64,000 nucleotides of DNA from a virus. The notes beneath the pieces were generated by a model that worked only from the letters and a program-made list of their open reading frames with translations, made no database searches and was not told the origin of the DNA. Every line of letters starts with the position of its first letter. Positions within the stretch are counted from its first letter, which is position 1. This document shows positions 4,556 through 38,790 of the stretch, piece after piece. The position numbers were made by a program, and so were the translations under genes. The stretch lies in IMG/VR virus record IMGVR_UViG_3300034061_002899; one strand, 5' to 3'.

Positions 4556-5382
4556 AAAAAGTTTTAATAACAGGTTGTTCAGGTTACATAGGATCGCATC
4601 TATGTAAACTATTAGCAAATGACTATGAGGTGCATGGATTAGATATTGTTGATCCACAGGCACCGCTCAATGAATTCTATCGATGTGATATCAATAGACA
4701 ATTTACAATGCCGGAAGATATTGAATACGATGCTGTTATTCATTTAGCCGCATTAGTTCGTGTTGGCGAGAGTGAACAAATACCAATCAAATATTATATC
4801 ACTAACTTGAATGGTACGATGAATGTTATCAACAGAATAAAAGCAAAGAACTTTATATTTTCAAGTACAGGTGCCGCACAAGATTGTAATAGCGCATACG
4901 GTATTAGTAAACGTGCGGCAGAAGATGTAGTTAGAGAATATTGTACAAACCATCGAGAAACACCATATACAATCTTTAGATTTTATAATGTTATTGGAAG
5001 CACCGTCGTATCTCCCACTAACCCCGATGGGTTAATGTATAACTTAATGAAGGCACGTGAGAGTGGTGAGTTTACTATATTTGGTAATGACTATGATGTG
5101 AGTGATGATGGTACCTGTGTACGTGACTATGTACATGTCAATGAAATATGTGACGCATTAATGCAAGCAATTGAAAAACCTAGCAATAGTGTTGAATCAC
5201 TTGGGCACGGAGTAGGATGGACTGTTAAAGAAATTGTTGATGAATTTCAAAAAGTCAATAATGTTAGCTTTAATATAAAATACGGGCCAAGAAGAAAGGG
5301 CGACATTGCTAGTAGTGTACTAAAAAATGTATCGCCCTATATGCGTAACTTGTATACGATGGATGAGTTACTTAAGGTTTAA
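4552..5382 (+). CDS. NAD-dependent sugar epimerase (GalE-like)
   Basis: TGCSGYIG, HLAA, YGISK, RFYNV, RDYVHV. Confidence 0.88.
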   Translation: MKKVLITGCSGYIGSHLCKLLANDYEVHGLDIVDPQAPLNEFYRCDINRQFTMPEDIEYDAVIHLAALVRVGESEQIPIKYYITNLNGTMNVINRIKAKNFIFSSTGAAQDCNSAYGISKRAAEDVVREYCTNHRETPYTIFRFYNVIGSTVVSPTNPDGLMYNLMKARESGEFTIFGNDYDVSDDGTCVRDYVHVNEICDALMQAIEKPSNSVESLGHGVGWTVKEIVDEFQKVNNVSFNIKYGPRRKGDIASSVLKNVSPYMRNLYTMDELLKV

Positions 5383-6386
5383 CTTAAACCAATCTTTCCC
5401 GGATACATTGGCCCGTCTTTGATTCTTTCACCACCGTCAAAGTAACGTATTTCAATAGGCATATCTTGCCAGTTTAATCTGTATGCAGCCATGATACGAT
5501 GATTGCCTTCGTTGACCCATGCTTCACCGTTGTAGGCAACCATGATGTATGGAAGATATTCGTGATCGGGACTGTGTGACATGGGTGGTAATTTACCAGT
5601 CTTTTCCATATAATCCATCAACCACTTTAAGTCAGCTTTACGGACATTAGTTTGTTCATGGCGCATACCCGGCAATGATGCCAAACGCATTACACGTACT
5701 CTTGGTGGTGTTCCTCTTACTGAAGCTGTAGTACTGCCCATATATGGTACACCATAACTATTGCGTCCTTGCTTTTTAGCATAGTCAATCTTGCTTTGTA
5801 ACCAATCCTCATTAGGTACGTCTACACTTAGTGTGCCTTCTGTGACACCTTGCTGACCTTTATCTAGAAATGCTACATTGTCTGGTATGCCTAGCTTTTT
5901 AATGCTCCACAGTATTTGATTATATTTTCCATCATATACTAATTTGTCAGATCCTAGATTTGGCGCACTAGAGTTAATTTGTTGTTCTGCTCGTTTATAG
6001 CTTTGAGGTTTGAGATACTTTTTAGCTTCACTAGGCCATCCACCTTGAAGAACATTATATAATGATAGTAAACTAAAAGCCCAGTCTTCTTTATCATCAG
6101 TTTCCCAACCTTGTTCACCGTGAGGATGAGTAACTAATATCGCACCCTTTTGTATAAGAGCCGGTACATTTAATTTTCTACGGTCAACATTAAATGTAGT
6201 GTTTGAATAGCCTTCCGCCACACTTGACCTTGATTCTCCGCCGCCACCATCACCTCCGCCTTCACCGGATTCTCCACTACCTCCGTAGTAGCCATAACCA
6301 GGAAAATAATATCCTCCTGTTCTGCGAATTCTTTTAGATTTTTTTCTAGATTTTTTGCGTTCTATTATAAATTCATTAGCTCTCAT
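5379..6386 (-). CDS. modular putative internal virion protein with C-terminal ParB/Srx-like domain
   Basis: MRANEFIIE leader; Gly/Tyr-rich segment; VAEG and QGVTEG linkers; NEGNHR motif. Confidence 0.65.
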   Translation of the reverse strand: MRANEFIIERKKSRKKSKRIRRTGGYYFPGYGYYGGSGESGEGGGDGGGGESRSSVAEGYSNTTFNVDRRKLNVPALIQKGAILVTHPHGEQGWETDDKEDWAFSLLSLYNVLQGGWPSEAKKYLKPQSYKRAEQQINSSAPNLGSDKLVYDGKYNQILWSIKKLGIPDNVAFLDKGQQGVTEGTLSVDVPNEDWLQSKIDYAKKQGRNSYGVPYMGSTTASVRGTPPRVRVMRLASLPGMRHEQTNVRKADLKWLMDYMEKTGKLPPMSHSPDHEYLPYIMVAYNGEAWVNEGNHRIMAAYRLNWQDMPIEIRYFDGGERIKDGPMYPGKIGLS

Positions 6387-6937
6387 GTATAACCCCTAAC
6401 TCTATCAAAGAAACTTGGTTTACCCTTTGACGGACCTTTAACTTCTCCATGACGTTTATGTTGACTACCATAGTCATAGAATTTACCTACTACATCGAAT
6501 CCATGCTTAAAGAAAATTGCAGCCGGGAAAGGTCTGATATTTTTCATCATTCCCACACGTTCTTTACCTTGTGGTGCTTCTTGTTTATCAGTTGTATTTC
6601 TATCAACTGGTTGTAACCATGCATTTGGTTTTAATCTAACTAACCAAACATAAGGCTTTTCCATAGCATACAAGTCATTATCATTTATATAAGTTTTTAA
6701 TGGATAGAACCACAATGCAGGATTACCCTTGCCTGCACCAATATAATCTGGATAATAGTCTGGATGGTCAATGTCAACACTACGTCCAAACTTTTGTTTA
6801 GCACTAAAGCCTAACTGGTCAATGTCAGTAAAGCGAACAAAGTATTCTTCTGGTCTGCCACCATCACGCTTAACAGCATTGATGATTTGATCCTTAACAC
6901 TTACTTTGGCTTCTGTGATAAACTCAGTGGCTCTCAT
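6383..6937 (-). CDS. putative internal virion protein
   Basis: MRATEFITE leader; coupled to neighbours. Confidence 0.65.
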   Translation of the reverse strand: MRATEFITEAKVSVKDQIINAVKRDGGRPEEYFVRFTDIDQLGFSAKQKFGRSVDIDHPDYYPDYIGAGKGNPALWFYPLKTYINDNDLYAMEKPYVWLVRLKPNAWLQPVDRNTTDKQEAPQGKERVGMMKNIRPFPAAIFFKHGFDVVGKFYDYGSQHKRHGEVKGPSKGKPSFFDRVRGYT

Positions 6938-7116
6938 TTCTTACGTCCTCTAAATCCTGCTGGCATATGTAAATCATTAACGGGGAACATTGATTTGAAC
7001 CATTCATCAGTGCCCGGCTTTGCAGTAATCTTACTACGGTCTATAGGAATAGAAGATGTAGGTTTTCCTCTATAATCATTTACACCAGCAAGTCTTTTAA
7101 GTTCGTCTAAGTTCAT
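6934..7116 (-). CDS. small protein with LKRLAG motif
   Basis: MNLDELKRLAGV; similar RIRKLSGL motif inside 8035-9513. Confidence 0.65.
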   Translation of the reverse strand: MNLDELKRLAGVNDYRGKPTSSIPIDRSKITAKPGTDEWFKSMFPVNDLHMPAGFRGRKK

Positions 7117-7667
7117 AGACTCTTACCCCAACGTGTATTGATTACATTCCAGTTAATAATCTTCCACTGTTCTTTCAAATATTTCTTTTTGTCAGAACCA
7201 TAGTCTAATATCCAGGCATGTTCCCACCAATCAACTAACAACAGTATGTCATTGCGTACTTCATGGTTCTTGATAGTTTTAATCTTACCATCAGTTGCTA
7301 AGTATACCCAACCACTACCTTGAATCTTCATTGCTTCAGTTTCAAACTGATCCTTCATTGATTCGTATGAGCCAAAATGTTTGTTAATAAAGCCCATCAT
7401 AGGACCATTGGGATTATTTTTATTTCTCACTTCACGGAACTGAGGGAATAATGTATTATGTAAAAATGCACCTGCATAGTTAAAATCCTTATCACCCTCA
7501 CCCTTGTTATAGCGTTCAGCATAACCTTTAGCTAGTTTGTCATAGTGAAGTTCTATTGTATCTTTACTAAGAACAGGTGCAAGTTCACCTTCAGTAAAGT
7601 TTAGTGGAATGATTTCTATGTCTTGGGGTTTACTCTTATCCTCAAGTAAAGTAATTAAGTCACGCAT
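7113..7667 (-). CDS. Fe/Mn superoxide dismutase-like protein
   Basis: TIELHY, AFLHN, QGSGWVYL, LLVDWWEHAW: all four metal-ligand positions present. Confidence 0.85.
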   Translation of the reverse strand: MRDLITLLEDKSKPQDIEIIPLNFTEGELAPVLSKDTIELHYDKLAKGYAERYNKGEGDKDFNYAGAFLHNTLFPQFREVRNKNNPNGPMMGFINKHFGSYESMKDQFETEAMKIQGSGWVYLATDGKIKTIKNHEVRNDILLLVDWWEHAWILDYGSDKKKYLKEQWKIINWNVINTRWGKSL

Positions 7668-8035
7668 TAGTCTGTATAATCCTCAACTTGTACAATCATA
7701 TTAGGTAATATATCACCCAAATACATACATTGATCTGTTTCTTTTAAACTGTCAATCCAATTATCAACTGTAGTATGATCCAAATCTCCTACAAGTTTTT
7801 TATGGTCTAATTTATTTACATCAACTGTGATTAATGTTACATAATCATTACCAGTTCTTTCTTGGTCTGACACCGCATACTCTAATGCTAAGTCAGGATT
7901 ATCTGTTAAAAATACTGCATGGTGTCTACCACCTCTTAGACCTTGCTGTTGAATAACATCAGCTGGCTCAGATGTTCCATGCCATAATTGAGTATGATCA
8001 TTTGTATTTTCAAAAATAAACTCTTTGGATAGCAT
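7667..8035 (-). CDS. ADP-ribosyltransferase-fold (KptA/ART-like) protein
   Basis: LWHGT..IQQQGL..VFLTD..ALEYA pattern; MLSKEFIFE leader. Confidence 0.55.
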   Translation of the reverse strand: MLSKEFIFENTNDHTQLWHGTSEPADVIQQQGLRGGRHHAVFLTDNPDLALEYAVSDQERTGNDYVTLITVDVNKLDHKKLVGDLDHTTVDNWIDSLKETDQCMYLGDILPNMIVQVEDYTD

Positions 8036-9513
8036 TAGTGTTTCAATAGTAATGTAGATATGATGTTAGGATCATTAGCACTGATATCACCTTCACCAGG
8101 AGCAACAATAACATTGTACTTCATACCTGCAGGGATAGATTTGCGTTTAGCCATGTACTCATCATAGTTTAGAATACTGTTAGCACTTAGTCCATACTCT
8201 TTAGCAAGACGATTCTTTAGTTCAGGTAACTTGTTAGGTTGTACTTGCCATTGGCCTTCTGACCCCTTAACTAAGTTTTTCTTTTCGTCCTTAACTAACA
8301 AATCTTGGAACAAATCATCTGGAACAATGCGACTATTCTTAGTTGTATCTAAGTTAGCATCTTTGGCTTTGACTTGCTTCTCTTGTCCTGTATTAGCACC
8401 TTCACTCCAGTTGATAATGAAGTTAGGTGGTTTCTGACCTAGCGCGGCACCAGCCATCTTTGTATACGCATAGAACTTAGTATCAGGATGCTTTGCAGCC
8501 ATCTTCAATGCTAAATCTAAGTATTCTGGGCTAAAGAAGTCACCAGCATCATGCCAACGAATGGTTACTGTATAACCACCCTTCTGACCTAATTTTTCTT
8601 CTTTGGCAATTTCACTGCTTAGTTGACTGAAGAAACCATCTGGGTCATTCAATAGATATGTTAGTATACGACCATCACTCTGCCAAGCGGCTTTGAACTG
8701 AACTTTACCACCCTTCATGGCAAAACAATCTATTTTACATGAACCAGCTCCTGGGCATGTATTAACAATGATTAGTTTGTTTGTATCTTCATCCAATGCG
8801 ATACCAGTCAATGCCGCAAAGCCAACGTTAAAGAACTGTTCTAATTCACCGTTACTATGCTTCATCTTTTCGTTTTGCTTTAATAATGCTTTTGGTCTTT
8901 GTGCCAATGCTTGTTTGATTTTATCTTCATTATATGTTTGACCATCAGGACCTAAATATTCAATCACACTACTACGATGTATGTAAGGCATTTTATATCT
9001 GTCTGTCTTTGTTTTACCAGACACATACTTTTCATTGCCCTTCTTGTCAGTCTTAACATTACCTTGTTTATCAACATCAGGAGTACCAATGATACGTTTC
9101 ATGTAGTCTTGGAACTCGTCACCACCAAACTCACGGCTACTTGCTGGTAGTTTAGTTGCTTCATCTAATCCAGATAGTTTGCGAATTCTGTCTAAACCTT
9201 CTGCTACGCTTTTGCCCAACACTTGTTGAACTAGTAGTTCGGGAGCAAAATCCATGTCACCGGCTAATTCTCTTGCCGCTGCCAATACTGCTTCTCTAGT
9301 TGGTTGTAGTCTTCTTTCTTCAACATCACGGCGCAACTTCATTATAAGAGATTGTGCATCATAACCTAAATCACGAACTCCCTCGTCAACTTCTTTTTCA
9401 CCGGGCATATCACCAGCTTTAGCAACGAATTGCTGAGGTGTCATAATTTGTATGCCACTCGGTGCTCCGGGCATTTTTGGCTCTGCGCCTTCAAATAGTT
9501 CTTTAAAATTCAT
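8035..9513 (-). CDS. modular protein with C-terminal Gp88-like (radical-SAM-related) domain
   Basis: TCPGAGSCKIDCFAMKG (CX4CX3C), IRWHDAGDF, FYAYTK; MNFKELFE leader. Confidence 0.7.
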   Translation of the reverse strand: MNFKELFEGAEPKMPGAPSGIQIMTPQQFVAKAGDMPGEKEVDEGVRDLGYDAQSLIMKLRRDVEERRLQPTREAVLAAARELAGDMDFAPELLVQQVLGKSVAEGLDRIRKLSGLDEATKLPASSREFGGDEFQDYMKRIIGTPDVDKQGNVKTDKKGNEKYVSGKTKTDRYKMPYIHRSSVIEYLGPDGQTYNEDKIKQALAQRPKALLKQNEKMKHSNGELEQFFNVGFAALTGIALDEDTNKLIIVNTCPGAGSCKIDCFAMKGGKVQFKAAWQSDGRILTYLLNDPDGFFSQLSSEIAKEEKLGQKGGYTVTIRWHDAGDFFSPEYLDLALKMAAKHPDTKFYAYTKMAGAALGQKPPNFIINWSEGANTGQEKQVKAKDANLDTTKNSRIVPDDLFQDLLVKDEKKNLVKGSEGQWQVQPNKLPELKNRLAKEYGLSANSILNYDEYMAKRKSIPAGMKYNVIVAPGEGDISANDPNIISTLLLKH

Positions 9514-10940
9514 AGTATTTCTTTCCTAGCTTTAGCTACCATTTGTTCGGCAAGCATTAGTAATTCTTCCATCTGCTCAATGGATTCACAATTCCATCTA
9601 CGTAAACTCTTATTAATATTGCTATTTGGATCTCTTGCTGTCTTGGCACTTGTTCTACTTTTCTTCATACCTTTCATTCTAGCACAGAATGACTTACGGC
9701 GTTTAGCGGCTTTACTACCCTTTTTAAGTTTGCTAGGTTTAGTAGTTACTGCTGTTTGAATCTTGCTACCAGGGTGACTGCGGCGATAACTACTCACAGA
9801 TTTTTTGCTCATCCCGCCAACACGTTTGTTATTGTGCTTTGACCAATTCTCACCTTCATTTGTTGCCATTTCACCATCATCACTATGACCATAATATGCG
9901 GCTACTTTTTGTAAATCAGCAGAATTTCTAGCATTGAGATAATCAGTTACTAAATCGTGAATTTGATTTCTTTGTTCCATTGGTGGAGGTAATTCTATTT
10001 CACCTTCACTGGCATCAGCAATATGTGCGGCACCGGGGCTATCTAAGAACCAGATTTCATCATCTTCATCCCATTCTAATCCCCATTTGTCTATTGTTGC
10101 AGTTAACACATAGTTATTGGTAGTACCTACTACAAACTTGTTACCACCTATATAACGTGAACTAGTAGGTTTACCATAATCTTTTGGTCCGCCACCACCG
10201 CCTGTGGGAGGCTTATTAGGAGCAAATTCATTTAGCTCGCCTTCACTTTTAGGTTTCTGATGATGTTTTTTCATATTGATAGCAATAGCGGCTTGTTGTG
10301 CTGGGTTTGCGGCTTCCCCCACACCTTTATTTCTGCCGGCCATTTGAATTACTATTAATGGTACTCTATTATCATCTTTGTCACCGCTATGTGTTATTCT
10401 ATTATATTCTTTTACTTTTAGTGCTACTGTATCGGGATCCATAACCTCTTTACTTATCACCTCATATCTAGTACCCGGTTCAAGCCCAGCTTTTTTTAAA
10501 TCGTCTATATGAATAGGTGTACCAGTGCCACTACCATCTGCATATGTTACGCTTTTTTTTAACCATCCGGGTTGAGGTTTTGTACTAATATACACAATGC
10601 CTCCTGAATCCACACCCGCATAAATATAATCAGGTAAATGCAGAATGCTCTGTAAATTTTTATTTGGATATGTTTTAAAATATTTTGTTACTACTGAACT
10701 AGTGTTCGTGTAGTCATCTATTTTTTGTTTTTGAATTTCTACTGCTTCTTCTTCAGATCCAACTTCAACCTCAGGAAAAAGTTTTGTTATATTAGTAACT
10801 TGGTTACCATTTCTATCACCCACCCAGGCTTTAGCAGTGTTGGAATTTTTAAGCGTAAATGCTTTAATAACATAGCCTTTATATGGCAATTCTACACCCT
10901 CATTTAACACATTTTCAATTAAAAATTCGTTTGCTCTCAT
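9510..10940 (-). CDS. modular putative internal virion protein, C-terminal basic DUF6321-like domain
   Basis: MRANEFLIE leader; RRKSFCARM...DPNSNINKSLRRWNC; several xxE-G/A linkers. Confidence 0.65.
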   Translation of the reverse strand: MRANEFLIENVLNEGVELPYKGYVIKAFTLKNSNTAKAWVGDRNGNQVTNITKLFPEVEVGSEEEAVEIQKQKIDDYTNTSSVVTKYFKTYPNKNLQSILHLPDYIYAGVDSGGIVYISTKPQPGWLKKSVTYADGSGTGTPIHIDDLKKAGLEPGTRYEVISKEVMDPDTVALKVKEYNRITHSGDKDDNRVPLIVIQMAGRNKGVGEAANPAQQAAIAINMKKHHQKPKSEGELNEFAPNKPPTGGGGGPKDYGKPTSSRYIGGNKFVVGTTNNYVLTATIDKWGLEWDEDDEIWFLDSPGAAHIADASEGEIELPPPMEQRNQIHDLVTDYLNARNSADLQKVAAYYGHSDDGEMATNEGENWSKHNNKRVGGMSKKSVSSYRRSHPGSKIQTAVTTKPSKLKKGSKAAKRRKSFCARMKGMKKSRTSAKTARDPNSNINKSLRRWNCESIEQMEELLMLAEQMVAKARKEIL

Positions 10941-23265: not shown

Positions 23266-23490
23266 ATGAAATCAAAAATCTTCATTATTCAGCGTGACAA
23301 CGACAATTATTTCAAGCAAAAGTTGCCTACATGGCGCAACGGTTTTTGTGAAATTACTCGCAATGTCATAATTGAACCAGACCCGCACGGTATCTATTTG
23401 GATGGTGAGTGGGGTTATATCACAGTCTATGGTAAAAAGATTTATGTCACTAGGGCCGGCACTGAATTTGCATTTGAAATTCGTGGCTAA
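23266..23490 (+). CDS. 74-aa early protein, paralog A
   Basis: Near-identical to 24287-24511. Confidence 0.8.
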   Translation: MKSKIFIIQRDNDNYFKQKLPTWRNGFCEITRNVIIEPDPHGIYLDGEWGYITVYGKKIYVTRAGTEFAFEIRG

Positions 23491-24286: not shown

Positions 24287-24511
24287 ATGAAATCAAAAAT
24301 CTTTATTGTTCAACGTGACAACGACAAGTATTTCAAGCAGAAATTGCCTACATGGCGCAATGGTTTCTGTGAAATAGTACGTAATGTCACTATTGAAAAG
24401 GATCCGCACGACATTTACCAAGACGGTGAATGGGGTTACATTACGGTCTATGGCCGTAAGATTTATGTCACTAGATCCGGCACTGAATTTGCGTTTGAAA
24501 TTCGTGGCTAA
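24287..24511 (+). CDS. 74-aa early protein, paralog B
   Basis: ATG 24287 by homology with 23266. Confidence 0.8.
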   Translation: MKSKIFIVQRDNDKYFKQKLPTWRNGFCEIVRNVTIEKDPHDIYQDGEWGYITVYGRKIYVTRSGTEFAFEIRG

Positions 24512-32860: not shown

Positions 32861-34057
32861 ATGACATCTGAATCTAAACTAAACCATTGTTCCTTTTGTG
32901 GTAATCACAAAGATAAAGTTACTAAACTTATTGTAAGCGAGGATGTTGCTATCTGTAGCGACTGTATTGAATTATGTAACCAATTGGTTATTGATGAAAT
33001 TGGCCCAACTGAGTCAACCCAAAATACAACCAACGATCCACATGATATTAAACAATACTTAGATGAACATGTAATTGGACAAGATAGTGCTAAAACAGTA
33101 TTAAGTGTGGCCATTGCTAATCATTATAAGCGCATTACACATCCACCCAAAGACTTAGAAATCAGTAAGGGTAACGTATTGATTATTGGACCTACTGGTT
33201 CAGGTAAAACACTATTAGCTAAAACTGTAGCCAAATATTTGAATGTACCATTTGTTGTTGCTGATGCTACCAGTTTAACCGAAGCTGGTTATGTAGGGGA
33301 TGATGTTGAATCAATGATTAGCATGTTGGTCAATGCCGCAGGCGGTGATCCTAAATTGGCAGAACGTGGTATTGTGTTTGTTGATGAGATTGATAAAATC
33401 GCCCGTAAGAGTGAGTCATCGAGTATCACACGTGATGTATCAGGTGAGGGTGTACAACAAGCATTACTTAAACTAGTTGAGGGCACTGTGTGTCGTATTC
33501 CAGCAGCCGGCGGACGTAAACATCCCGGAGGTGAAATGATGGAAGTCAACACAAAGAATATCTTGTTTATTGCAGGAGGTGCGTTTGTTGGATTAAAAGA
33601 TATTATTTCTAATCGTCAAAATGGCACAAGTATTGGCTTTGGCGCAAGCATTAAAGAGAACAAAAAAGAGGGTGATTTGAGTAGTGTAACACCAGATGAT
33701 TTAACTAAGTTTGGTATGATTCCTGAGTTTATTGGACGCTTTACTACGACAGTAAGTATTGGGGAGTTGGGTAAAGATGAACTAAAACTAGTATTAACAT
33801 CTGTCAAAAACAACTATATAAAACAGTACCAATATTTGTTCAGTATCGATGGTATTGAGTTAAACTTTGATGATAGTGCTTTGGATCAGATTGTAGATAA
33901 CTGTTTAAAACTAAAGACTGGGGCACGAGGGTTGCATACTGAAATCGAACGTGTATTAATGCCACATATGTTTAACATTAACAAATACAAAGAAAATAAC
34001 GTAAAAGTGATAAATATTAATCAGGACAGAGTTTTAGAACCAAAAATTAATTTATGA
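32861..34057 (+). CDS. clpX: Clp protease ATP-binding subunit ClpX
   Basis: CSFC..CSDC Zn finger, [24 protein letters not shown] loop. Confidence 0.96.
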
Positions 34058-36789: not shown

Positions 36790-38139
36790 ATGAGAGCAAA
36801 AGAATTTTTATCAGAGTCTAAAGGTATCATGGGCCGTATTCCCGGAGACAAATTCACCAATGGGGATAATATTTTAGAATTTCAAAATGTTACAGTATTT
36901 CCAGAAGAAACTATACAGTATGAAACACCGGAAGAGCGTGACGCCGTAATTGCATCTATAGAAAAAAAGTTAAAGACTAAAATACAATGGTCTAATAGTC
37001 CCAATAAAGGATCATTAGCATTTGGTATAGCAACCCTCACTGACCCACTAAACAATGATGCTCCAGTATACTGGGGTAGATACTTTAAACAAAAAATGGT
37101 AGATATGATGGGTGCTTGGAAAAATAGTGAAGTTCCCGCAGGATGGAAGCTACAGAAATCAGGATCTTTAAAATTAGATATAGCTATTGATCCACAGCAT
37201 CTTATTGCAACTGATGGAAAATTTAAAACAGTAGAACAAGTTATTAGAACAGTAGATAAAAACAGTCAAGGCAATCCGTTACATGATTCATTAGTAAATG
37301 GATTAAAACAAATCAAAGCAAGACAAAATCCTGTATTCGTCAATCAAATAAAAAATTTACCAGCACTTAGAGATTACTTCGGTGAGATCATGGGCCCGTG
37401 CGCCCTAATGTCAGGAATGATTGGTGGTCAAGCAGAAGATGCTAACAAACAATTATTAGAAGGTTCAGGTTGGGCTTCATGTCAAGTATTTTGGCCACAG
37501 GCCATGAACACAAACCTTGTTGACAGTGTATTCATAGGACCAAAAGGCCAAGAAATAGGTATTAGTAGCAAAGGTGGTAAGGGTGCTAGAGCAAGCGCAA
37601 AGAACATTGCAGACGCTATTAACAAAGCACCAGATGAACTAAAGGCTGAATATCCCTTTACTGTTGAAATATTAAACATAGTTCAAAATAGTACGGCATT
37701 AGATGCACCTTTTAGATTAGCAGAATTACTACAAATGTTACCTGCAAATCTTGAAAGAGAAATACTAAGTTATATTAAGTCAGGAAAAACTGATTACAAT
37801 GGACTAAGCAAAGATGCAAAAGAACTTTTTGATTATGGTACTCCTAGGCAAGATGTTCCCGGTTTCAACACAGGATATGCCTTGTTAGCATTGCTAGCTA
37901 AAAAAATGTCAAGTATTGTGAATGAAAATCCAACCTTTAGTGAAGGTGCAATAACATTCTTAAACCAATCAAGTATTGTTCAATTATATTGTAAGATGGG
38001 TAAGAGTGGAAATGATGCCCGTGTTACAGGTTGGGACGCCGTTTATCCACCAAACTTCCAAGGCCGTGTTGTATTAGATGGAAGTAAAAACTATTATAGT
38101 TCACGCATTGGCGGCAAATTCGCATTCGGGTTTGTTTGA
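36790..38139 (+). CDS. putative internal virion protein, possible PD-(D/E)XK-like fold
   Basis: MRAKEFLSE leader; GE..LVD..ISSKGG; TAAATA upstream. Confidence 0.55.
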   Translation: MRAKEFLSESKGIMGRIPGDKFTNGDNILEFQNVTVFPEETIQYETPEERDAVIASIEKKLKTKIQWSNSPNKGSLAFGIATLTDPLNNDAPVYWGRYFKQKMVDMMGAWKNSEVPAGWKLQKSGSLKLDIAIDPQHLIATDGKFKTVEQVIRTVDKNSQGNPLHDSLVNGLKQIKARQNPVFVNQIKNLPALRDYFGEIMGPCALMSGMIGGQAEDANKQLLEGSGWASCQVFWPQAMNTNLVDSVFIGPKGQEIGISSKGGKGARASAKNIADAINKAPDELKAEYPFTVEILNIVQNSTALDAPFRLAELLQMLPANLEREILSYIKSGKTDYNGLSKDAKELFDYGTPRQDVPGFNTGYALLALLAKKMSSIVNENPTFSEGAITFLNQSSIVQLYCKMGKSGNDARVTGWDAVYPPNFQGRVVLDGSKNYYSSRIGGKFAFGFV

Positions 38140-38202: not shown

Positions 38203-38790
38203 ATGAGTCTAGTCCCAATGGTCCTCGAACAAACAGCAAAAGGTGAGCGTAGCTATGATATCTATAGCCGCTTACTACGTGACCGTGTTATTTTGCTTGA
38301 AGGTGAAGTACATGACCAAATGGCAAATCTTATCGTTGCCCAATTGCTTTACTTAGAAAGTGAAAGCGATAAAGATATTTCAATGTACATTAATAGTCCA
38401 GGTGGTAGTGTTACTGCTGGTATGGCAATCTATGATGCAATGCAATTCATCAAACCCGATGTACAAACTATTGTAATGGGTCAAGCATGTTCAATGGGTT
38501 CATTACTTGCACAAGCAGGCAGTGCAGGTAAACGATTTATGTTGCCAAACGCACGACACATGATTCATCAACCAAGTGGTGGCGCACGTGGTATGCAAAG
38601 TGACATTGAAATTAGTTACAAAGAAATCACTTATTTGAAAAAACGTCTTACAGAAATCTATGTTAAGCATAATTCAGCCGGCAAAACATATCAAGATTTT
38701 GAACGTGATATGGATCGTGACAAATTTATGAGTGCGGAAGAAGCATTGGCATATGGTTTGATTGACAAAATTGTTGAAAAACGAGAATAA
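38203..38790 (+). CDS. clpP: Clp protease proteolytic subunit
   Basis: [28 protein letters not shown]. Confidence 0.97.

Follow-up and report, generated by a model that had tools for sequence, protein, structure and literature searches.

In phage T4, the capsid targeting sequence carried by internal proteins IPI, IPII and IPIII and by Alt is removed by the gp21 prohead protease (PMC9026906, PMC3012670). This leader is only 10 residues long, ends at the site after which gp21 cuts (L/I-X-E), and is enough for packaging (PMC9026906). Here we describe a run of genes at 5379-10940 of a 64,000-nucleotide (nt) stretch of the IMG/VR virus record IMGVR_UViG_3300034061_002899 (the whole stretch is referred to as the window), whose products appear to be cargo of a related kind. 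Most of them start with a similar leader, and three are chains in which small modules are joined by a short linker of the form VxEG that, in relatives of this virus, is conserved as DNA as well as peptide.

The likeness to the T4 internal proteins lies in the short N-terminal leader ending hydrophobic-x-Glu and in a gp21-family protease in the clade, and also in the diverse, fast-evolving, non-homologous cargo found behind one leader and in the location of the genes in a plastic region of a T4-superfamily genome. Unlike the T4 proteins, the chains carry several modules per leader with repeated internal sites, and the DNA of the joint is conserved whereas that of the leader is not. The cargo proteins described here have no sequence homology to the T4 internal proteins. 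In the giant phages phiKZ and SPN3US, a diverged gp21 homologue cuts many packaged head and ejection proteins behind the Glu of a minimal motif, S/A-X-E (PMC9026906, PMC10052503); cutting is likewise predicted for our chains, but the phiKZ and SPN3US proteins come from separate paralogous genes with propeptides, and neither cassette chains nor a DNA-conserved joint is known there.

Polyvalent proteins (Iyer, Burroughs, Anand, de Souza and Aravind 2017, PMC5512222) also combine many unrelated domains of effector type within a single polypeptide, are extensively mosaic, and share ParB-like, GNAT, Nudix, nucleotidyltransferase (NTase) and GH19-like domains with the chains. An inferred role just after DNA entry is a further likeness; processing of the polyvalent proteins is ascribed to a zincin-like metallopeptidase domain embedded in them (PMC5512222). 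Two or more unrelated domains per polypeptide occur here as well: a 1593-amino-acid (aa) chain in one relative (L019) holds a ParB_N, a NUDIX and a GH19-like domain, and p335 in the window combines domain A with a weakly ParB-like domain. Unlike those of polyvalent proteins, however, the joints fit a head protease acting in trans, and Pfam detected no embedded peptidase in six window proteins, eight other proteins of the contig or the polyproteins of four relatives, although distant ones could escape such a search. The uniform, DNA-conserved linker is a feature of the chains, and none is described for polyvalent proteins.

Three further systems shuffle cassettes. Promoter/stem-loop (PeSL) cassettes in T4-type phages undergo modular shuffling and form mini-circles, and their authors compare them to integrons (PMC2839356, PMC4122927). 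As with PeSLs, short conserved direct repeats flank variable modules that recombination shuffles without a dedicated integrase, but PeSLs are intergenic, several times longer, and move whole genes, whereas the linker is 12-18 nt long, in frame and peptide-coding, and moves domains. A PeSL is an intergenic sigma70-like promoter with a terminator stem-loop, whereas copies of the linker lie in frame inside long open frames wherever the frame is readable. As in integrons, promoter-less cassettes are joined to and lost from an expressed array at a recurring site; here, though, the cassettes are protein modules rather than genes, none of five records searched has an IntI-type recombinase, and the site is a direct repeat that is conserved in sequence and has unrelated flanks. 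The imperfect, structure-conserved inverted repeats of integron attC sites are not matched by the linker, as judged from its sequence without a fold test. In polymorphic toxin loci (CdiA-CT after VENN, Rhs tips), orphan toxin cassettes are swapped at a point marked by a conserved motif that encodes peptide; such loci are also alluded to in PMC5512222. There too variable modules are set off by a short conserved coding motif, which provides the homology for replacing cassettes, but those proteins are bacterial and secreted, with one variable tip each and no maturation protease at the joint. In the literature on capsid targeting, prohead proteases and polyproteins we found no published description of chains like these, and full-text searching for the linker and leader peptides turned up no phage paper.

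Module joints in the window and in relatives

An earlier note on this DNA, made without database searches, had spoken of polyproteins. The stretch encodes seven open reading frames (ORFs) with overlapping or abutting ends, six of 122-492 aa and one of 60 aa, and their separate starts rule out a single long polyprotein over 5379-10940; only three of the seven (p335, p492 and p476) are multi-module chains (Table 1). Five of the seven products start with one of the leaders given in the table, and 22 further examples were found in relatives. In length (~9 aa) and in their hydrophobic-x-Glu ending, these leaders resemble the T4 capsid targeting sequence.

The linker motif is more frequent in these proteins than expected. 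The seven ORFs, 1853 aa in all, contain [VLI]xE[GA] 10 times, versus 50 times in the 27,844 aa of the other ORFs of the contig (p=0.004, ~3-fold). A wider cargo set, comprising the leader- or linker-bearing proteins of the contig, has 21 occurrences in 3841 aa; shuffling residues within each protein gives 7.0 +/- 2.5, and none of 2000 shuffles reaches 21. Enrichment, shuffling and the cellular-genome control described below rule out a chance origin of the motif. The contig also has chains outside the window: in one of 749 aa, small modules are separated by VDEGVAEG, KNEGVAEG, SNEGLDEG and ILEG, and one of 207 aa carries EDEGLEG and VVEG. The earlier note had located and translated its four 18-nt linker sites (SSVAEG, QGVTEG, KSVAEG and KGVGEA) exactly, and was right that their GC-rich codons are unusual here: on the contig, Val is encoded by GTG in 10% of cases, Ala by GCG in 7% and Gly by GGC in 18%.

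Searched with p335, IMG/VR gave 40 loci, of which ~12 cover only residues ~178-335 and ~8 only residues ~50-186. These one-sided matches split the protein at SSVAEG (residues 54-59) and QGVTEG (residues 178-183). At the DNA level, homology of domain B begins at 5854-5832, at the QGVTEG linker, and that of domain A extends from 6223-6211 to 5860-5836; the domain bracketed by the two linkers, which the earlier note had put at ~120 aa, has 118. In relatives, domain A is a mobile module found behind at least eight different neighbours, among them a nucleotidyltransferase-like module (joined through KQGVAE-G) and a ParB-like module. Domain B is found directly after a leader (MRAQEFIIE-GKL...), after a GNAT-like module (QTVTE-G) and inside a 1906-aa chain; its copies are 83-89% identical in L006-L016 and 58% identical in L022, and their contexts differ. 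The contexts of the two modules in relatives include polyproteins of 938-1906 aa. Domain B has a weak match to the ParB-like family phrog_1033 (expectation value E 0.005), and an Atlas search gave no usable assignment for domain A. The AlphaFold2 model of p335 is poor (mean predicted local distance difference test score, pLDDT, 42.6): besides two short stretches, domain A (residues ~68-176) is the only region above 50, with residues 1-67 and 177-253 below it; 10-residue blocks over 71-140 and 151-180 average 52-85, and residues 140-151 fall below 50.

In the other two chains, too, match boundaries fall at linkers. When the cargo proteins of the contig were compared with the fetched relatives by tblastn, match starts and ends clustered at VAEG and LDEA of p492 and at TNEG of p476, and also at VDEA, KNEG/VAEG, ILEG and SNEG/LDEG of p749, YLEG of p207, and VSEA and ISEA of p583. 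For p492, which contains a GP88 domain (Pfam, residues 211-381, E 4.5e-25), the starts of matches gather at residues 105-118 and their ends at 108-112; the orthologous module in L066 and L099 ends ...LLVKQVLG followed by QGVAEG, with different partners thereafter. For p476, eight matches begin at residue 364, right after TNE-G, and Pfam places DUF6321 at residues 373-449 (E 2.8e-10); its small module ANPAQQAAIAI..KPK is followed by a canonical QGVAEG in relatives. The view of linkers as domain boundaries, advanced in the earlier note, is therefore upheld for the p335 pair, KSVAEG, LDEA and TNEG; KGVGEA has a single match start (residue 205 of p476), and LNEF drops out, being a module start (SLNEFAP in relatives) with the actual joint, KSE-G, just ahead of it.

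Comparison of relatives with one another shows what happens at these joints. In linker-bearing ORFs of the fetched loci, 199 of 933 homology ends lie no more than 15 nt from a linker, where 43 are expected (21% vs 4.6%). Between paired relatives, an identity of 88-96% on one side gives way to unrelated sequence exactly at a linker: L009 and L014 agree through ...gcacag and continue with GATACTACGGAAGG and GGTGTGGCGGAAGG, respectively; their identity is 95% as far as ...GGAAGG, and beyond it they are unrelated. Leader end and linker are interchangeable before one and the same module: L007 has a linker (...ACTGTGGCG then GAAAAC...) where L012 has a leader end (ATGAGAGCTCAAGAATTTATA then GAAAAC...). 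Whole modules also come and go. L148 has one linker (...MAQGNK-GVAEG-SGAKYKVKS...), whereas L116 has two, their cores 318 nt (106 codons) apart, with a 100-aa module between them (...MAQGNK-GVAEG, the module, then GVAEG-DSGAKYKVKS...); the alignments of the two loci overlap on the single L148 linker, a pattern characteristic of segments gained or lost between direct repeats. Three further indels, of 281-664 nt, are bounded likewise. As with PeSLs, the repeat delimits both the indels and the replacements seen between close relatives. On these alignments, linkers are the points of module swap, gain and loss in relatives, and the events fall in frame, which agrees with the coincidence of ortholog breakpoints and motif that the earlier note had predicted. 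The crossover points vary within and beside the linker.

Two recurrent modules are worth describing on their own. A small basic module (NFADGK...HW.ANMK.G.KK) is among the most mobile cassettes, recurring in L020, L027, L028, L007 and L012 after a leader (MRAHEFINE-NFADG), a linker (TVAE-NFADG) or WIMKE-NFADG. The DUF6321 module at the end of p476 (9510-9863, minus strand; also L002:1981-3264 and L003:2467-3282) is also present in cyanophages and pelagiphages in large number (471 phage records). In P-TIM68 and P-SSM2 it forms the end of a protein whose gene lies just ahead of the terminase genes, with TTNE-D or VNE-G before the module; the design of a module plus an acidic joint may thus reach marine T4-like phages.

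Conservation of the linker as DNA

In loci found by protein similarity, 32 GVAE sites in differing contexts use nearly the same codons: GGT at 30 (background.43), GTG at 29 (.20), GCG at 24 (.09) and GAA at 29 (.79). Among the matches listed, 157 further, non-seed GVAE sites use GGT at 148, GTG at 128 and GCG at 124, and the exact 12-nt core GGTGTGGCGGAA is present at 99. The 18-mer guessed in the earlier note is, exactly, the commonest linker 18-mer in relatives, CAAGGTGTGGCGGAAGGC, and a scan of IMG/VR for it found at least 154 copies in at least 120 viral stretches. All copies listed read QGVAEG and are in frame wherever the frame is readable, and the open frames that hold them have a median length of 563 aa, the shortest being truncated at the ends of loci; the matches listed have 143 different left and 141 different right 8-aa contexts. 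At least 269 exact 12-nt cores connect flanks that fall into about 205-211 clusters at 40% identity. Most variant linkers derive from the consensus by a single base change (ACG or GGG for GCG, AGT for GGT). The synonymous positions, which the earlier note had proposed to examine, are thus constrained in relatives, with GTG and GCG at ~80-90% against a background of 7-20%.

Codon bias does not account for this identity, as the fixed codons include the rare GTG and GCG, whereas other conserved peptides vary silently: the invariant YDGKYNQILW of domain A uses all four Gly codons and four Leu codons, and leader DNA, unlike linker DNA, shows ordinary variation. Recent common descent of whole loci is rejected on the ~200 flank clusters and on the finding that conserved Gly, Val and Ala residues within orthologous copies have the same codon in just 51% of pairs for domain A and 47% for domain B. 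Complete relatives have 3-5 near-exact cores per genome, all on the cargo strand, which rules out a genome-wide Chi-like signal. In 596 Gb of prokaryote genomes, the 18-mer was found in 56 stretches, nearly all of them single copies and mostly in high-GC actinomycetes and xanthomonads, and in five cultured Rak2-like phages no DNA core rose above the control level.

One cellular contig stands apart from the rest. L226 (CAILDT010000116.1, 9 kb, from an 'uncultured Bacteroidetes' metagenome-assembled genome) is the only one with three exact 18-mers, all within 900 bp. Probably derived from a phage and mis-binned with the Bacteroidetes genome, the contig gives a weak lead to a host.

Predicted processing and module exchange

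Relatives of the source virus have genomes of ~285-353 kb; four (G001-G004) are complete or nearly so, and G001, which has terminal repeats, measures 352,754 bp. A Peptidase_S77 (gp21-type) prohead protease is encoded in each of the four (E 1e-22 to 5e-27, above the Pfam cut-off), by a gene adjoining that for a gp23-type capsid protein. The G001 capsid protein starts MSQELLESRWGETKEALLE then GLNG, the protease itself starts ...AGIIVE-GSSE-G, and the scaffold and acidic core proteins contain many [VILM]xE-[AG] sites. With the motif present in these proteins, the linker has the form of the likely maturation sites of the clade as well as of the leader end, and cleavage at the linkers is plausible.

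The reading that we consider fairly probable is that these proteins are leader-targeted cargo chains, cut at their linkers by the gp21-type protease and exchanging modules at the conserved 12-nt core. The leader would carry the chain into the prohead, where the protease would cut after the Glu of the leader and of every linker; the resulting separate small proteins would then leave the head with the DNA. The core, inside the 18-mer, would serve as a short patch of identity at which the general recombination or replication machinery of the phage could swap, insert or delete whole modules in frame. Repeated exchange would homogenise the linker copies, and selection would retain only cleavable in-frame products.

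The earlier note had likened the exchange to an integron. This is not borne out: tyrosine recombinases (PF00589) were found in none of five records (G000-G004, three of them at least 95% complete) by a search whose controls matched 14 of 14, serine recombinases (PF00239) were found in none of the same five, and the site is a 12-18-nt direct repeat that does not resemble attC. Since no integrase was found, 'integron-like' is just an analogy, and because a RecA/UvsX-type gene is present in relatives, short-homology recombination by general machinery is the more likely and most economical reading.

If the cargo-chain reading holds, a standard connector plugs any small protein, in frame, into a head-packaged chain from which the maturation protease can release it, and modules can be exchanged between phages at a joint of 12-18 nt. 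This would explain the fast turnover of the first-strike proteins of giant phages, would make candidate anti-defence or host-takeover proteins of hundreds of modules of unknown function, and would provide a rare instance of one short sequence selected as both DNA and peptide. The connector could also be borrowed to package foreign proteins into phage heads.

Several points weigh against this reading. The 101-kb source record (29% complete) contains no protease gene, and the P3 residue of the linker is mostly Val, where the T4 consensus has Leu or Ile. Within the window the DNA consensus is weak: the named sites have 3, 3, 6 and 3 mismatches of 18, and a scan for the 12-mer core with up to two mismatches found two sites (one mismatch each), where 1.9 are expected by chance. 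Strong conservation of the linker DNA is accordingly not supported within the window. The window reads as an eroded example, in which the peptide motif is kept and the DNA identity has partly decayed; at KSVAEG in particular, the peptide is retained but the DNA has drifted. Breakpoints at linkers could reflect selection alone, because just the in-frame, inter-domain exchanges survive, and the fixed codons could serve the mRNA rather than recombination. A patch of 12-18 nt is short for efficient homologous recombination. Finally, the sites we counted are not independent, as the contigs are related.

The linker may be only a protease site or a flexible joint, with exchange occurring anywhere, selection keeping the inter-domain events, and the codons serving translation; for example, a pause at GTG-GCG or a Shine-Dalgarno-like purine run would let each module fold before the next emerges. 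We think this unlikely, though worth keeping in mind. GTG and GCG are indeed rare here (7-20%), the core occurs solely in frame on the cargo coding strand and nowhere else in complete relatives, and the source genome keeps the peptide though its DNA has drifted, all as such a role would have it. But the remaining fixed codons (GGT, GAA, CAA) are common and GTG is not the rarest Val codon, which implies that a specific sequence is kept rather than rarity as such. The single-base relation of most variant linkers to the consensus also speaks against a translational role, and so do the indels, whose direct-repeat signature falls on the linker itself.

The chains could instead stay uncut and act as intact multi-domain 'polyvalent' proteins, with VxEG as a favoured inter-domain spacer. 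Phages are already known to have polyvalent proteins with ParB-like, GNAT, NTase and lysozyme domains, and delivery without cutting is known for some of them (PMC5512222). We rate this improbable, given that the linker is shaped like the leader end (EFIxE) and each replaces the other before the same module, that the motif stands at the expected capsid maturation site and throughout the scaffold, and that ejection through a portal would be awkward for chains as long as 1906 aa.

More speculatively, and with similarly low odds, the core may be a true recombination signal that a nuclease or recombinase of an unrecognised family cuts or pairs, with linker-bounded circles passing between co-infecting phages. 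One sequence would then be both shuffling site and protease site, an intragenic 'integron' for injected anti-host proteins. The least probable alternative, to which we give very little weight, is a dedicated site-specific recombinase or nuclease that recognises the 12-nt core and moves modules as circles, an integron inside genes: the core is extremely uniform over ~200 different junctions, the cassettes are bounded by direct repeats, and T4-type phages do form mini-circles between short conserved repeats (PMC2839356), but G000-G004 have no tyrosine or serine recombinase, each complete genome has just 3-5 cores, crossover points vary in and beside the linker, and no inverted-repeat structure is evident, no fold test having been made.

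The gene run and its genome

The window corresponds to bases 1481-65480, minus strand, of a 101,148-bp IMG/VR virus record; GC content is 33-43%. CheckV puts the record at 29% completeness, from which the whole genome would measure ~350 kb. Judged by DNA polymerase (44-50% identity) and capsid protein (65-66%), the closest phages in culture are Sinorhizobium phage Phosso, Agrobacterium phage Atu_ph07, Klebsiella phages RaK2 and K64-1, Vibrio phage 2.275.O and Pseudomonas phage PA5oct. The source is an uncultured T4-superfamily phage of roughly 350 kb, akin to the Rak2/PA5oct/Atu_ph07-like jumbo phages. No match to p335 was found in cultured phages. The T4 late promoter TATAAATA is not enriched (5 seen, 10.9 expected); only a GATAAATA lies upstream of p476, and we do not count it as promoter evidence.

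Table 1. Cargo genes, modules and linker sites, with positions in the window
Feature	Position	Strand	Description
p476	9510-10940	-	leader MRANEFLIE, unknown modules, C-terminal DUF6321 module
p492	8035-9513	-	leader MNFKELFE then G, N-terminal helical module, linkers, GP88-family domain
p122	7667-8035	-	one module after leader MLSKEFIFE
Fe/Mn superoxide dismutase, 184 aa	7113-7667	-	N-terminal extension MRDLITLLED...
p60	6934-7116	-	small ORF (MNLDELKRL...) in the overlapping run; one match in a relative
p184	6383-6937	-	one module of no identified family after leader MRATEFITE, then A
p335	5379-6386	-	leader MRANEFIIE, basic then Gly/Tyr-rich spacer, SSVAEG, domain A, QGVTEG, domain B
Domain A	5856-6209	-	p335 residues 60-177, motif YDGKYNQILW
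Domain B	5382-5837	-	p335 residues 184-335, weakly ParB-like
SSVAEG	6210-6227	-	TCAAGTGTGGCGGAAGGC; 3 mismatches to consensus 18-mer; last 14 nt identical to consensus
QGVTEG	5835-5852	-	CAAGGTGTCACAGAAGGC; 3 mismatches to consensus 18-mer
KSVAEG	9196-9213	-	AAAAGCGTAGCAGAAGGT; 6 mismatches to consensus 18-mer
KGVGEA	10311-10328	-	AAAGGTGTGGGGGAAGCC; 3 mismatches to consensus 18-mer, 1 to the 12-nt core GGTGTGGCGGAA
LNE-G	10896-10907	-	other candidate joint in p476
TNE-G	9852-9863	-	other candidate joint in p476
KSE-G		-	other candidate joint in p476
VDE-G	9379-9390	-	other linker in p492
LDE-A	9157-9168	-	other linker in p492
p449	36790-38139	+	ORF outside the gene run, next to clpP; leader MRAKEFLSE

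Two genes of the run encode single proteins about which more can be said. The superoxide dismutase matches both of its Pfam families (Sod_Fe_C, E 2.5e-24; Sod_Fe_N, E 1.3e-5), and six of its matches to relatives begin at residue 1. Its N-terminal extension of roughly 15 aa (MRDLITLLEDKSKPQ) is kept in relatives, and the gene lies inside the cargo run; the enzyme may be packaged in the head. The product of p122 (LWHGTSEP...AVFLTDNPDLALEYA) has weak Atlas language-model matches to viral clusters, among them some that contain ADP-ribosyltransferase families of the PARP or Arr type; the feature matches to PARP or Arr-ms clusters score 0.92-0.93 with low shared counts. It is possibly ADP-ribosyltransferase-like, which we offer as a lead only. 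Motifs like those of p122 also occur in chains of the relatives L013 and L027.

Outside the run, the leader-bearing p449 has no recognised family and no match among the fetched relatives. It lies directly upstream of a bona fide-looking clpP (38203-38790, plus strand), with a clpX-like gene near (32861-34057, plus strand). Two 74-aa paralogues, at 23266-23490 and 24287-24511 (plus strand), are ~1 kb apart and have near-identical N-termini (MKSKIFI[IV]QRDND.YFKQKLPTWRN).

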